A stretch of 61,056 nucleotides of DNA from a virus (Duplodnaviria; Caudoviricetes), in IMG/VR virus record IMGVR_UViG_3300043469_000246, positions 1 to 61,056 of that record, one strand, 5' to 3'. Of this stretch, positions 15,047 through 27,416 are shown piece after piece. The notes under the pieces are model-generated. The model did no database searches. It saw only the letters and a program-made list of their open reading frames with translations, and was not told the DNA's origin. Made by a program: the position numbers and the translations under genes. Position 1 is the stretch's first letter. Each line of letters starts with the position of its first letter.

Positions 15047-15075
15047 TTGCAAAGGTGTTTATTTTCCCTCAGAAT
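15047..15075 (+). promoter_or_regulatory. putative sigma70 promoter of early operon
   Basis: TTGCAA-17 nt-CAGAAT with AT-rich upstream tract. Confidence 0.5.
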
Positions 15076-15106
15076 TGTCGGTAGGTGATCAAACACCGAT
15101 TCGACT

Positions 15107-15118
15107 AACTGCTAGGAG
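15107..15118 (+). promoter_or_regulatory. AACTGCTAGGAG leader/RBS motif copy 1
   Basis: exact 12-mer, 8 nt before ATG 15127. Confidence 0.8.
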
Positions 15119-15126
15119 ATATACAA

Positions 15127-15354
15127 ATGGAAAGAATTGAAACAATGGCTGACACCATAGCCTTATGGAATGAGCAAATGAGAATAGATGCGATACGCAG
15201 ATACTCGATACAACAAGGATGGTCTGTTATTGATTTGTTCAATGATGGCGATCTGTTGGAGTTGCTTTCAGAATTTAAGATGGATTATGTAAAGGTTCTC
15301 AAACGCATACAAGGCATGCAAGTTGTTGAGGATACTATCCAGTCGGACTGCTGA
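15127..15354 (+). CDS. early hypothetical protein
   Basis: strong SD; first gene of plus-strand cluster. Confidence 0.75.
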   Translation: MERIETMADTIALWNEQMRIDAIRRYSIQQGWSVIDLFNDGDLLELLSEFKMDYVKVLKRIQGMQVVEDTIQSDC

Positions 15355-15411
15355 GTGATACCTACAAGCCCATGCACTGCGTGGGTTTGTGGATTATCAA
15401 TTTCGATAGTC
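15346..15411 (+). other. long RNA hairpin (RNase III-site-like) before leader copy 2
   Basis: GACUGCUGAGUGAUA..CUACAAGCCCAUGC/GCGUGGGUUUGUGG..UAUCA..UUCGAUAGUC with G-U pairs. Confidence 0.55.
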
Positions 15412-15413
15412 AT

Positions 15414-15425
15414 AACTGCTAGGAG
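15414..15425 (+). promoter_or_regulatory. AACTGCTAGGAG leader/RBS motif copy 2
   Basis: exact 12-mer, 6 nt before ATG 15432. Confidence 0.8.
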
Positions 15426-15431
15426 AATTAA

Positions 15432-15788
15432 ATGGAATCGACTGCCACTTTAGACTTATCCCAGTTCACTGGGACTGAGAATTACTATCGCACTAATCAC
15501 CTTTTTGCTAAGGACATGGTTCACACTGATGGCGTTCAATACTTCGCTGACACTGCTGGTTGCTACTGGTTCTTGGACATTATCGCTACTGAAGTATTCC
15601 CACTGCTCAAGAAAGAGCCATTCATGGCAATCAATCTGCTTGTAGAGGATGGCAAAGCCAAGATCGCAGTTGAGGATGGTGATCTCAAAACACTGCTTGC
15701 AAAGCAGATTGACTACACTAACTGCCCTGATGGTCTGTATGAGTTTTTCCTGACCAACAATGTGCTGATGCTGACTTCGGAGTATTGA
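15432..15788 (+). CDS. DUF6876-like protein
   Basis: LSQFTGTENYY..TDGVQY.A..AGCYWFLDII..EDGD..IDYT..VLMLTSEY. Confidence 0.75.
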   Translation: MESTATLDLSQFTGTENYYRTNHLFAKDMVHTDGVQYFADTAGCYWFLDIIATEVFPLLKKEPFMAINLLVEDGKAKIAVEDGDLKTLLAKQIDYTNCPDGLYEFFLTNNVLMLTSEY

Positions 15789-15790
15789 TT

Positions 15791-16093
15791 ATGACTCACT
15801 ACTTTATCGGCAAAGAAACCTTTAACTGCCCTTTGATTATGGAAGGCAGTTGGGGCGAAAAGGATATCGGGACTCACGAATCCACCATGGAGTTGTATTT
15901 CAGAGATGATGCCACTGGGTTCATTGAGTGGGATATCGAGGATGTGGGTTTTGAATACATTGGTCTGTGGTTCACCATTGACCAGTTTGGTATCCGCACC
16001 TTGGATGAATATGACGGAGTGATGTGCCTGTCTGACAAGGCAATAGCCCTGTTGCGTAAGTTTGATGTCATTGTTCCCAAGGAGTTTGAATAA
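15791..16093 (+). CDS. acidic early hypothetical protein
   Basis: ORF, acidic, coupled to next gene. Confidence 0.7.
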   Translation: MTHYFIGKETFNCPLIMEGSWGEKDIGTHESTMELYFRDDATGFIEWDIEDVGFEYIGLWFTIDQFGIRTLDEYDGVMCLSDKAIALLRKFDVIVPKEFE

Positions 16094-24916: not shown

Positions 24917-25146
24917 TGGCTTTTTTCAAGTCCTAATTGATGTTCAAGGTAAGAGATCACCGCTTTGTAACCGACAATTTGGTGATTTAGCTCTGCAATT
25001 TGAATGTCTTTGAGGTCAATCGTTTCGTGTAAAGAGTCAAGCTGAGACTCTTTGTATAAGCTAATTTTTTGTTTAGCAGAGTTTTCAAACCGTTCAGCTT
25101 GCGCATTGATATCGTCAAAGGTATATATCTTTTTAGTTCTTCCCAT
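24913..25146 (-). CDS. hypothetical coiled-coil protein
   Basis: AGGAG SD, coupled. Confidence 0.65.
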   Translation of the reverse strand: MGRTKKIYTFDDINAQAERFENSAKQKISLYKESQLDSLHETIDLKDIQIAELNHQIVGYKAVISYLEHQLGLEKSQ

Positions 25147-25154
25147 GACGTCTC

Positions 25155-25409
25155 CTAGTAAGGTAAGTCGTTATCAACAGGCTTCTCATAGGGTTCTGAG
25201 GCAGAGATTGACAATGTCTTCTTGCCGTTGATCTCTTTCTTCCACCCCGCCACGGATATTTTGATAAGCCCTTCGGGATTCTTCATCATCATTGCTTTGA
25301 TAAAGTCACGATCAAGATGCAGATCACCCCTAACATCAGGGTGAGTCTCTGTTTTCTTCTTATCGTTAGGCCACAGTGTGCCTGTGTTTGCTTTTGGTAT
25401 GAACGCCAT
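25155..25409 (-). CDS. putative small ssDNA-binding protein (DUF736-like)
   Basis: GTLWPNDKK..HPDVRG..ISVAGWKK..LSIS; acidic DNDLPY tail. Confidence 0.6.
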   Translation of the reverse strand: MAFIPKANTGTLWPNDKKKTETHPDVRGDLHLDRDFIKAMMMKNPEGLIKISVAGWKKEINGKKTLSISASEPYEKPVDNDLPY

Positions 25410-26110
25410 TATGCTTCCTCCTTGTTAAATTCATTCTTTTTCTCTGTAAACTTGCCCATCATTTCCTTGAAGAATGTGGCATCGGTAGCTTTGACAGTGT
25501 CAAACAACACCTTGTTCTTCTTAAAAATCAACATGACATCTTCCTCGTTCTCGGTCAGATCAAGCAACTGATGCGAGGTAATCTTGATTAACTCAAGCCA
25601 ATCACCAACTTCTCCTGCGGGCTTTCCTGGTGCCACAATCTGCCACTCACCTTTCTCGCCAGCAATTTTCTTGGGTTCAGGCTTATTGGGTTCAGGCGTA
25701 ACAGGTGTTACGCTTGGTTTCTTGGCTACCTCTACCGCACCAGTAGTCGCATCCAAGGAGTCATGCTCCACGATCTCAAAAGCATTTGTCCACAGATATC
25801 TACGCAGATAGGTTTGCACCGCACCTAGGTTCTGTACATCATGGCAACCTTTGAGGGCAGCAGAAGACATTGGCGAAGTAAACATAATGGATGTGCCATC
25901 CTCTACATCGTTAATCTGTAGGAACGCCATCTCATGGTTAAATGACACTACACCGCAAAGTCCTATGTCATTGCAGATCTTCTGAATCGCTGGAAGAAAA
26001 TCGCCTAACTCAAAGTACTCGTAGCCAGCAAACTTATTCTTGCCTGACTTTGATAACTTTGTGCCTTGTAGCAACATCCTAGCTTGTTGCAGTTTTTTAT
26101 ACACACTCAT
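25409..26110 (-). CDS. erf: ERF-family ssDNA annealing protein
   Basis: KSGKNKFAGYEYFELGD, QNLGAVQTYLRRY..D. Confidence 0.8.
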   Translation of the reverse strand: MSVYKKLQQARMLLQGTKLSKSGKNKFAGYEYFELGDFLPAIQKICNDIGLCGVVSFNHEMAFLQINDVEDGTSIMFTSPMSSAALKGCHDVQNLGAVQTYLRRYLWTNAFEIVEHDSLDATTGAVEVAKKPSVTPVTPEPNKPEPKKIAGEKGEWQIVAPGKPAGEVGDWLELIKITSHQLLDLTENEEDVMLIFKKNKVLFDTVKATDATFFKEMMGKFTEKKNEFNKEEA

Positions 26111-26985
26111 ACACACTCCTTAGTTGATAAATAATCCCGATACTGTTGGCAGTATTGAGACACTGGGCAAAAGTTTGCACACCGAGTACGCTCGCCCTGA
26201 CGCACTTCGATCTCATAGTCCTTGCCTAGTTGCTCTAAGGCTTCTGTGGCAAAAACTTCTGATTCATATAAGGACTTGGCTCTAACATTCCCTTTCTTCT
26301 TAATAGCCCATACAGTGGGTTTCTCCCACATCTCTTCGGGGGTGCAGTCGGGTAGACCGCCATCCGTCTCGATAGCAAACTCACAGGCACTGTGTAGGGA
26401 GATACGCTTGGCAATATAAGCCTCACGTTCCTGCATCGTCCACAGCTTCATGGGGATTTCTAGGATAGGGGCTTTAGGGTAGCCCTCTTTCTCCCGATCC
26501 CGTCTGCTCCAATCACGCAACATAGCTACGATGGTGACTGACTTAACAGGCACTTTCTTAACCTTCTCAACAAGCCATGCGTAGATGTTTAATTGGTTCT
26601 CCCACTCAGGCTTCTCGTTCATAGCTGCCCAAACCGAGGTGAACTTGTAGTCCTTAACATGGATGCCATCGGCTTCAACTTCCTGTAAATCAACCGCCCC
26701 AGTGATGTGCCAACCATCATGCTCGATGTGAATGCGTTGCTCGACTATATGGTTCTCATCCTTGCCTTGTTCCAAGAAGTTATGGATAGCTGAGCCGACT
26801 ATTGACCATACCATCTCAGAGGCGTCTTGCTCGATCTCATCCTCAAACTTGCGGGTCAAGGCTACGATCTTGGGGCTATTGAGTAACTGGGTAGCAGACA
26901 GGTGAGCCTTACCTTTGTTATAGGTAGGGCGTTCTAAGACATTGATAAAGGTCTGTGGGATGCCGTATTCGTTAGTTAATTTCAT
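26107..26985 (-). CDS. PD-(D/E)XK exonuclease (Cas4/RecB-like)
   Basis: SATQL, GSAIH, E..ITGAVD..DYKFT, QLNIY, C-terminal C..FCPV..C. Confidence 0.8.
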   Translation of the reverse strand: MKLTNEYGIPQTFINVLERPTYNKGKAHLSATQLLNSPKIVALTRKFEDEIEQDASEMVWSIVGSAIHNFLEQGKDENHIVEQRIHIEHDGWHITGAVDLQEVEADGIHVKDYKFTSVWAAMNEKPEWENQLNIYAWLVEKVKKVPVKSVTIVAMLRDWSRRDREKEGYPKAPILEIPMKLWTMQEREAYIAKRISLHSACEFAIETDGGLPDCTPEEMWEKPTVWAIKKKGNVRAKSLYESEVFATEALEQLGKDYEIEVRQGERTRCANFCPVSQYCQQYRDYLSTKECV

Positions 26986-27133
26986 GCTTGCTCCTTGTAG
27001 CTAGTTCCATCTGCATTTGCTCATACATATGTTGACGCATCATGCGAAAGAACTGGATTTTTTGGTCACGTTCATCTTTTTTATTTTCAAAGTATCTACG
27101 CTCGTCTATGCGAGTCTTCCAACCTTTTCTCAT
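26972..27133 (-). CDS. hypothetical protein
   Basis: ATG 27133 coupled to upstream TGA. Confidence 0.55.
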   Translation of the reverse strand: MRKGWKTRIDERRYFENKKDERDQKIQFFRMMRQHMYEQMQMELATRSKHEIN

Positions 27134-27357
27134 TTCTTTGCCATTAAAAAAACAACGCAAACAAACATAAGAAACCCAGTACATCCGATTAACACCAAGC
27201 GCTCTAAGTTACGCTGGCGGTGCCACTTTGGTGGAAATATAAACAGCGTTTGGATATAGATCATGTCCTCATCGTCAATGGGCATGGGCTTAGGACATTC
27301 GTTATAGCGACAGCCAATCTGAACGCCCTTGGAAGTGGTATACGGAATTGTTTTGAT
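27130..27357 (-). CDS. 75-codon membrane-anchored protein starting at ATC (non-AUG start or start-lost)
   Basis: ATC 6 nt after AACTGCTAGGAG, preceded by in-frame TAA; frame open to TGA 27130; C-terminal hydrophobic helix. Confidence 0.5.
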   Translation of the reverse strand: MKTIPYTTSKGVQIGCRYNECPKPMPIDDEDMIYIQTLFIFPPKWHRQRNLERLVLIGCTGFLMFVCVVFLMAKK

Positions 27358-27363
27358 TTAGTT

Positions 27364-27375
27364 CTCCTAGCAGTT
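27364..27375 (-). promoter_or_regulatory. AACTGCTAGGAG leader/RBS motif copy 5
   Basis: exact 12-mer on minus strand, just after promoter. Confidence 0.8.
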
Positions 27376-27387
27376 AAACTAGACTTG

Positions 27388-27416
27388 ATTGTGAACCATA
27401 GTTTATAGCATGTCAA
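27388..27416 (-). promoter_or_regulatory. sigma70 promoter of recombination operon
   Basis: TTGACA-17 nt-CACAAT. Confidence 0.7.

Follow-up and report, generated by a model that had tools for sequence, protein, structure and literature searches.

Predicted pairing of a small antisense RNA with a repeated ribosome-site tag and a replication leader in a freshwater phage family

The window analyzed here is the whole of a 61,056-base viral contig from IMG/VR (record IMGVR_UViG_3300043469_000246), with an estimated completeness of 96%. Within it, a rightward early operon converges on a leftward replication operon, and a leftward recombination operon lies beyond (Table 1). A nine-base word, TGCTAGGAG, hereafter referred to as the tag, stands at the head of all three operons, and its exact complement is carried by a candidate small RNA (sRNA) gene next to the replication operon. 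A sequence-only reading of this region proposed that the sRNA silences early, replication, and recombination genes together through the tag, which would be exposed by elements that cut the messenger RNA (mRNA). In this study, this proposal was followed up computationally; as a whole, it is partly supported. Judged from sequence comparison, the tag, a hammerhead ribozyme, and a separately bounded RNA gene with the tag complement hold up as real features, conserved in a large freshwater family of uncultured phages. We consider it probable, though well short of certain, that a small trans-acting antisense RNA, with a predicted promoter and terminator, targets the shared ribosome-site tag and the leader of the replication operon.

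Relatives were collected with the ParB-like protein of the replication operon as the query, which yielded 48 viral-contig loci of 40-85% identity (numbered with the prefix L). The tag is present in 40 of these 48 loci. In their recurrent layout, start codons on the early side have sense tags, and upstream of the ParB gene there is one antisense copy with no start codon. Metagenome runs of lake water and fresh water contain DNA near-identical to positions 14800-22100; there are 22 such runs, from about 19 studies (2020-2024). The phage is widespread in this habitat, though several of the 22 runs may be the source of the record. A search of deposited phages for close relatives returned only one unrelated 7% match, and no relatives of the ParB-like protein were found in prokaryote genomes.

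Seven exact copies of the tag occur in the window against 0.48 expected, and none of 100 shuffles reached seven. All lie between 15.1 and 27.4 kb, on the plus strand at 15110, 15417, 16522, 16943, and 21928 and on the minus strand at 21796..21788 and 27372..27364. The 12-mer AACTGCTAGGAG, with at most one mismatch, has six copies against 0.39 expected. The four early copies are situated 6-8 nucleotides (nt) before an ATG, the two minus-strand copies stand just after promoter-like sites at the 5' ends of the leftward operons, and the seventh copy (21928-21936, plus strand) is the reverse complement of the tag inside the minus-strand sRNA gene of about 118 nt. The claim that the early, replication, and recombination operons are headed by one shared tag is therefore borne out. 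The claim that the tag serves as a ribosome site in all three is not, because the copies at 21796 and 27372 are followed by no usable ATG, GTG, or TTG start in the window. The replication-leader copy is followed by GTG-TGA. The first open reading frame (ORF) of the recombination operon has ATC at 27355-27357 (minus strand), six bases past the tag, where relatives have an ATG and a 75-codon ORF. Read from this ATC, the ORF has 75 codons and is in frame with an ATG at 27285; the ATC points to either non-canonical initiation, loss of the gene, or a mistake in the assembly. Taken together, promoter-like sites show no excess in the region (16 vs. 27.4 in shuffles); at the place of the CAGAAT of the early promoter-like site, the relative L014 has TATAAT.

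Across the window and the 48 loci (784 kb), 190 copies of GCTAGGAG were counted, of which 153 are followed by a start codon that opens an ORF of 25 codons or more. GCT stands ahead of 153 of the 783 AGGAG-led starts. The six bases upstream of GGAG, CUGCUA, are kept in the 153 start sites and match the invariant part of the sRNA seed. These six bases are not known to have a role in ribosome binding.

Table 1. Features of the tag, sRNA, and replication-leader region, with positions in the window
Feature	Position	Strand	Description
Promoter-like site, early operon	15047..15075	+	TTGCAA at 15047-15052, 17-nt spacer, CAGAAT at 15070-15075; by eye, below scan threshold
Tag copy 1	15107..15118	+	AACTGCTAGGAG; ribosome site of ORF 15127-15354, about 30 nt past the predicted transcription start
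E element 1	15352..15413	+	Stop codon of the upstream ORF, hairpin P1, one unpaired G, hairpin P2
Tag copy 2	15414..15425	+	Ribosome site of ORF 15432-15788
Type I hammerhead	16456..16517	+	Predicted cut at 16511/16512; new 5' end 7 nt before the tag
Tag copy 3	16519..16530	+	Ribosome site of the 25-codon hydrophobic ORF 16539-16616, followed by ORF 16627-16884
E element 2	16882..16939	+	Architecture as in E element 1
Tag copy 4	16940..16951	+	Ribosome site of ORF 16958-17428
Two-way terminator	18257..18290	.	Between the converging early and replication operons
Replication operon	18296..21509	-	ParB-like 20646-21509, helicase 19114-20592, Toprim protein 18296-19141
Betaproteobacteria-1 RNA (Rfam RF02932)	21610..21726	-	100 bits vs. 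gathering score 49.4; model positions 1-120
Replication leader, 5' end	21770..21796	-	Tag 21796..21788 and extension 21781..21770 complementary to the 5' arm of the sRNA; no usable start
Promoter-like site, replication operon	21802..21830	-	TTGCAA-17-TAATCT; by eye, below scan threshold, conserved in relatives
Candidate sRNA, about 118 nt	21850..21967 (runs 21967..21850)	-	5' hairpin, unpaired seed CUCCUAGCAG (21936..21927), further hairpins, terminator
sRNA terminator	21882..21851	-	12 pairs and T run (U tail); terminator scan
Promoter-like site, sRNA	21974..22003	-	TTGACG-18-TACATT with TG, 9/12; promoter scan
Recombination operon	22036..27357	-	PD-(D/E)XK nuclease, ERF, SSB-like, ferredoxin-labelled PHROG match, weak helix-turn-helix ORF, HNH protein
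Tag copy, 5' end of recombination operon	27364..27375	-	
Promoter-like site, recombination operon	27388..27416	-	TTGACA-17-CACAAT, 10/12; promoter scan

The sRNA gene was compared between the window and 28 loci, which were selected for holding an antisense copy of the tag. In all of them, hexamers resembling TTGACA and TATAAT precede a 5' hairpin, which is followed by the seed, more hairpins, and lastly a GC stem and T run; the sequences themselves are very different. The promoter-like site is at the same place in 17 of the 17 homologues scored, with matches at 7-11 of 12 positions. In the minimum-energy folds of 17 sRNAs, the seed is mostly unpaired, in a loop closed by a stem of clade-specific sequence. 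The only invariant columns in the alignment of 17 homologues (59% mean identity) are eight seed bases and a few terminator bases. Scanning the collection with a different block of the sRNA retrieved 46 further stretches; 38 had the seed upstream, in its canonical ten-base form in 27 and changed in the first two bases in 11. Single-sequence folds were used because RNAalifold, applied to 27 sRNAs, recovered only one hairpin and the terminator; the other stems were lost because MAFFT misaligned them. A small ORF opposite the sRNA, starting at a GTGCG conserved beside the anti-tag, was rejected, since GTGCG is one strand of an sRNA stem. The gene thus has the attributes of an sRNA gene, namely its own promoter, a terminator with a U tail, and an unpaired conserved seed, all of them predicted. 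The separate RNA gene with the exact tag complement that the sequence-only reading had put forward holds up as a conserved predicted gene, bounded by a promoter-like site and a terminator. An Rfam search over 14700-28000, with E values up to 10, gave no antisense family and no C4 match. Two RNA libraries hold about 5% of the sampled words. Their contigs on 14800-22100 are short, with 90-99% identity, and comprise parts of early and replication genes and 21404-21645; none covers 21850-21967. The contigs derive from relatives, at low depth and with possible DNA carry-over.

Two side observations concern the sRNA gene in distant relatives. The most distant relatives, L050 and L051 (about 7720-7860) and L044 (about 9400-9510), lack the tag and have an sRNA-like gene with a promoter-like site, a terminator, and CCUCCU or CUCCUC loops; the repeated ribosome-site word of L050 and L051 is AAGAGGAGG. 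These genes look like a more generic anti-Shine-Dalgarno version of the same idea. In L023 (about 7340-7440), and also in L024, L026, and L030, a second conserved, structured-looking stretch follows the sRNA terminator, at the place held by RF02932 in the clade of the window, with G-rich and C-rich ends around a conserved AACAGGATT...GTTCGGTTGTTG core.

The element ahead of tag copy 3 has the core CUGACGA, GAAA, and GUC. Its best Rfam match is RF03152 (27.7 bits vs. a gathering score of 56.3, E 0.4), and none of eight related loci reached the gathering score of an Rfam hammerhead model. Homologues were assembled by a pattern search for the core beside the tag, which gave 21 instances, 19 of them distinct. 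All 19 keep CUGAnGA, GAAA, and UC before the cut, with six of six pairs in stem I, at least four in stem II, and at least five in stem III. Stems II and III covary, with 3-5 pair types per variable position, and every hammerhead in this set has the fixed tag 4-11 nt downstream. On this evidence, the element at 16456-16517 is a type I hammerhead with stem I open, and self-cleavage is predicted; the 3' product would begin with six stem I bases followed by the tag. The proposed hammerhead ahead of the tag is hence upheld by a core and three covarying stems in all distinct homologues. Stem III has a long insertion of two tandem identical hairpin-like units of about 19 bases in L009:10320-10427, L014:18494-18602, L015:16642-16749, and L047:18145-18251; this insertion may have been added to the ribozyme as a module that binds protein. 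In the window, the tag that follows the hammerhead leads the strongly hydrophobic 25-codon ORF 16539-16616 and not the 85-amino-acid (aa) ORF behind it; the short ORF may encode a small membrane peptide or act as a translational-coupling leader.

Tag copies 2 and 4 are preceded by a second element, here called E. Its layout is the stop codon of the upstream gene, a few bases, hairpin P1, one unpaired G, hairpin P2, 6-20 bases, and the tag. P1 has 11 pairs and a conserved GCCC/GGG top, and P2 has seven; sequence conservation is found in P2, including a conserved base, and in the top of P1. For the alignment, 17 of 25 candidates were used after five near-duplicates and three rows that are not E (L023, L039, and L053, the last a hammerhead) were dropped. 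In this alignment, 95.8% of cells are paired vs. 83.0% in shuffles (0/500), the covariation score is 0.472 vs. 0.227 (0/500 shuffles as high), and compensatory changes are seen at 8 of 18 pairs. In slid controls, pairing is 35-44%. No Rfam match better than 13 bits was obtained over 15330-15440, known ribozyme classes included. E is, by these comparisons, a conserved structured RNA element absent from Rfam.

We infer that E is a processing site. Gene 16958-17428 has E upstream in the window, and its 63%-identical orthologue in L016 has a hammerhead upstream; E would create an RNA end, whether through RNase III, another nuclease, or its own activity, because the hammerhead fills the same slot before the orthologous gene. 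The sequence-only reading had described two RNase III-like hairpins here. The hairpins stand as a conserved, covarying pair, for which RNase III cleavage is a possible role and other roles fit as well; P1 and P2 reach about 18-19 pairs only if stacked end to end. It is possible, if somewhat unlikely, that E is not a cleavage site and is instead a processive antiterminator of the put type (HK022), a stabilizing hairpin, or a protein-binding site. The put RNAs, as described, are about 70 nt long and have two stem-loops with a G at the fork (PMC9378689), and E likewise joins two stem-loops by one unpaired G, a likeness in architecture. Base conservation in P2 and the top of P1 is also typical of contact surfaces. 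However, E occurs two or three times per operon, between genes and right after stop codons, whereas put lies downstream of promoters in that account (PMC9378689), and a hammerhead takes the place of E before an orthologous gene.

Covariation of the sRNA is strongest with the replication leader. With the first 35 nt or so of the leader, the sRNA is predicted to form 20-29 pairs in 11 of 11 lineages (-24 to -37 kcal/mol). The part of the leader outside the tag is wholly different between lineages, yet complementary to the sRNA of its own lineage. For the full duplexes at 10 loci, the mean energy was -32.1 kcal/mol for cognate and -25.6 kcal/mol for non-cognate pairs. When the tag was excluded, the values were -14.9 and -8.0 kcal/mol, 0 of 20000 permutations reached the cognate mean, and the cognate sRNA was the best for 7 of 10 leaders. 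Changes also match within the tag. The leader GCUAGGAA of L008 is matched by the seed UUCCUAGC (GGAA with UUCC), GCUAGGAU of L035 and L066 by AUCCUAGC (GGAU with AUCC), GCUAGGAA of L101 by UUCC (GGAA with UUCC), and GCUAGGGA of L106 by UCCC (GGGA with UCCC). In L047, GGAG is lost on both sides, and 9 and 12 complementary bases are kept. The minimum shared by all partners is CUGCUAGG against CCUAGCAG, which includes two Gs needed by the ribosome. At the level of sequence, the sRNA and the leader have coevolved.

Matching changes at the ribosome-site tags are confined to a clade of L023, L025, and L049, whose tags are ACCGCUAGGAG (7-8 copies each) and whose seed is CUCCUAGCGG: ACCG replaces ACUG before CUAGGAG, and the sRNA has GG for AG at the facing positions. 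Among 26 lineages, cognate ribosome-site tags had 11.36 contiguous pairs vs. 10.75, and 11 of 20000 permutations were as high. Covariation between seed and ribosome-site motif in relatives had been set beforehand as the decisive check of the proposal. The outcome is positive but uneven: covariation is strong for the replication leader and weaker for the ribosome-site tags, where it amounts to one clade-level T-to-C/A-to-G change.

Several observations weigh against a trans-acting sRNA with many targets. The cognate excess for ribosome-site tags is small, and its permutation test is inflated by related lineages. The 11 of 38 seeds with changes in the first two bases track the leader, and the ribosome-site tags in these lineages stay CUGCUAGGAG, leaving about 8-9 pairs. 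In L017, L018, and L021, the change is one-sided; an sRNA G opposite a tag U gives a wobble pair, which is not compensatory. The same three loci have a perfect 12-base inverted repeat of tag and anti-tag, 94 nt apart and directly upstream of RF02932 (L017:4630-4731), and this arrangement suggests pairing in cis. Tag and anti-tag stand there around small hairpins, in reversed order relative to the window. The sense-strand duplex of sRNA and leader (-32.3 kcal/mol) is better than that of the opposite strand (-31.5 kcal/mol) in 9 of 11 lineages; the energies are nearly equal, and therefore G-U pairs cannot settle the acting strand. Gene conversion between the two arms, which form an inverted repeat about 140 bp apart, could mimic covariation. 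A search of distant clades for an extended partner of the sRNA found none above background. Finally, two of the four promoter-like sites (15047 and 21830) fall under the scan threshold.

One alternative is that the leader of the ParB, helicase, and primase operon is the single real partner, as in plasmid-type control of replication dosage, and that the match to ribosome sites is a by-product. The tags would be kept as part of a cassette (ribozyme or E, tag, and start codon) that initiates translation strongly and is passed on by recombination among mosaic early genes. Early gene content is indeed mosaic between relatives while the intergenic cassettes are nearly identical, and an RNA-library contig of a relative skips ORF 16279-16479. 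The restriction of strong covariation to the leader, and of the seed variants to changes that track it, is also accounted for. The conservation of CUGCUA in 153 start sites, coincident with the invariant part of the seed, is not, and neither is the seed change that matches the tags of the ACCG clade. Moreover, distant clades retain both the sRNA and the tags and have no extended leader partner, which argues against a leader-only explanation as a complete one, and likewise against the two that follow. We regard the single-partner explanation as unlikely.

Cis pairing is less probable still, and we give it little credence. Here, read-through at the sRNA terminator would give transcripts in which a long-range helix covers the 5' part of the leader, and there would be no free trans-acting sRNA. 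The geometry permits this: the two arms share a strand, the distance between them is 122-152 nt in 10 of 11 lineages and 228 nt in L047, and the 94-nt arrangement of L017, L018, and L021 lies within one leader. Transcripts of the recombination operon must enter the sRNA gene because there is no terminator between 22036 and 22003. They would then meet a strong and conserved terminator (12 pairs and a T run), and the leader has its own conserved promoter-like site downstream of it. In distant clades, the sRNA is 1-3 kb from the ParB gene and has no nearby partner, and cis pairing leaves the multi-copy tags unexplained.

It is very improbable that the tag acts in DNA as an operator for a DNA-binding protein, with the sRNA and leader copies as inverted operator arms, for although two arms do flank the replication promoter-like site, duplex energies are nearly equal on both strands, and the 12-mer is by eye near-palindromic around CTAG, 153 of the 190 copies are sense-oriented at ribosome-site distance from a start codon, most copies shown are inside operons and not at promoters, the arms retain unequal internal loops, and the promoter-like site, hairpins, and terminator of the sRNA are kept in clades without the inverted arrangement.

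Under the favored reading, a trans-acting antisense RNA, the sRNA would be made by the host polymerase from a sigma-70-type promoter to an intrinsic terminator. Its unpaired seed of 8-10 nt, CCUAGCAG (CUCCUAGCAG in the window), would pair with CUGCUAGG(AG), which is made up of the non-ribosomal half of an extended Shine-Dalgarno tag together with its first Gs. Each independently translated early block and both leftward operons are headed by the tag, which is always near a real or predicted RNA 5' end, whether after a promoter, a hammerhead cut, or E as the putative processing site. This constant proximity suggests that the ends are made to present the tag. Pairing would hide the ribosome site of the first cistron of each block. 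The whole block would probably be silenced as a unit, because the ORFs within a block abut or overlap; the early block headed by ORF 15432-15788, for example, has tightly packed ORFs up to 16479. Of all partners, the leader of the ParB, helicase, and primase operon would have, at its 5' end, the highest predicted affinity, with 20-29 pairs, and pairing there would be expected to lower the expression of all three proteins. Repression by the sRNA is presumed rather than activation.

The sRNA could act as a timer of early shut-off as it accumulates, provide dormancy or copy control without a repressor, or confer lineage-specific immunity. Plasmid-like dormancy or copy control is considered because there is a ParB-like gene and no integrase. 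A search of the contig for tyrosine or serine recombinases, integrases, and resolvases found none, and no CI-type repressor was recognized in it; the sole HTH_3 match, in the 61-aa ORF 22326-22511, is sub-threshold at 16.6 bits. The sequence-only reading had likewise recognized neither repressor nor integrase. A more elaborate picture, which we consider doubtful, is a three-tier RNA circuit free of proteins. Early mRNA would be cut into tag-led blocks, with E as a new processing signal or a new self-cleaving motif, and the sRNA would occlude the tags. The leader, whose pairing with the sRNA exceeds that of any tag two- to threefold in extent, would serve as a sponge that titrates the sRNA once the operon fires. 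Such a circuit would be a timer or a bistable switch, and it could serve as lineage-specific immunity and plasmid-like copy control.

The replication leader also contains RF02932, which the sequence-only reading had overlooked and which is present in relatives as well. RF02932 occurs without the tag in Variovorax, Comamonas, and Ottowia genomes (L055, L056, L058, and L061-L063). The upstream flank in five of these six bacterial loci resembles, by eye only, the end of a Toprim-type gene, and RF02932 may belong to the replication modules of mobile elements of Comamonadaceae. A literature search found no function described for RF02932; the supplements of the Rfam motif papers, which it did not cover, may bear on this. 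Downstream of RF02932, a 12-base direct repeat is found at 21542-21553 and 21589-21600, 47 bases apart. The repeats flank a conserved stretch with a partial tag, CTAGGAG, and the bacterial loci have another repeated word there. These repeats look like iterons.

ORF 27888-39194 (minus strand, 3768 aa) encodes a polyvalent protein with the Pfam domains AAA_34 and Helicase_C_4 (Strawberry-notch-like helicase domains) and LPD38. The idea that it is an N4-type virion RNA polymerase with the hairpins as its promoters was ruled out by these domains for the protein and, for the hairpins, by G-U pairs that assign them to the sense RNA. It is therefore reasonable to work on the assumption, made in the sequence-only reading, that transcription is by the host polymerase.

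If the favored reading is correct, one seed could address many genes through a ribosome-site tag, in a family represented by dozens of viral contigs, and natural variation already offers compensatory pairs. Hammerheads in phage operons would gain a concrete purpose, the creation of tag-led 5' ends. Two further outcomes are a new conserved RNA element, E, that can take the place of a ribozyme, and a setting for the orphan Rfam motif RF02932, which is found in a replication leader beside its likely regulator.

Among known systems, the c4 RNA of phages P1 and P7, the CI RNA of P4, and the CA RNA of N15 are comparable phage antisense RNAs. The c4 and CI RNAs are processed out of the transcript that carries their target, whereas the present sRNA has its own predicted promoter-like site and terminator and is not predicted to be cut from the target transcript, although transcripts of the upstream operon also enter its gene. 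In a review, c4 RNA is described as controlling immunity through exposed loops that pair with the ribosome-site region of a target encoded downstream on its own strand (PMC12197685). The present sRNA is likewise located immediately upstream of its best partner, shares its orientation, and is complementary to a ribosome-site region; it also resembles this system in that no CI-type repressor was recognized in the contig. Few phage sRNAs have defined targets within the genome that encodes them, and those listed in the review are mostly antisense RNAs with one target (PMC12197685). In contrast to c4, the best partner here is a replication leader without a start codon, and five further tag copies lie elsewhere in the genome. 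The suggestion that the system is reminiscent of P1 C4 and P4 CI therefore stands as to the c4-like logic and fails as to family, since no C4 match appears in Rfam at E values up to 10.

In CopA/CopT and RNA I/RNA II, a constitutive small RNA loop-pairs with the leader of a replication gene, and the partners coevolve and are lineage-specific. The cognate and non-cognate energies of sRNA and leader follow the same pattern. Here, however, the RNA is encoded beside its target and not opposite to it, the pairing is at the very 5' end of the leader, upstream of RF02932, and many ribosome sites also match. In T7, the early polycistronic mRNA is cut between genes at hairpins by RNase III, and in T4, RegB cleaves early ribosome sites, so that early genes are shut off jointly through a shared ribosome-site feature. 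The present tag is longer, the proposed effector is an RNA and not a nuclease, and the cutters would be a ribozyme and a candidate double hairpin.

Hammerheads flank genes in prophages, where they have been proposed to process long phage transcripts into mRNAs that span a gene or an operon (Perreault et al., 2011; PMC3088659). The same paper describes a haloarchaeal virus in which a hammerhead precedes a start codon by 13 nt and a 5' end has been mapped close to the cut (PMC3088659). The present ribozymes resemble these in standing between genes of long phage transcripts, for which processing was proposed. They differ from the prophage hammerheads as presented there in always having one fixed tag 4-11 nt after them, which a phage sRNA can pair with, and in alternating with a second conserved element in the same slot. 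A literature search, supplements not covered, for a fixed tag after ribozymes, an element interchangeable with a ribozyme, or a phage sRNA complementary to such a tag found nothing. Antisense control of the phage P1 c4 kind and phage hammerheads that flank genes are known; the combination of tag and sRNA has, on this search, no described counterpart.

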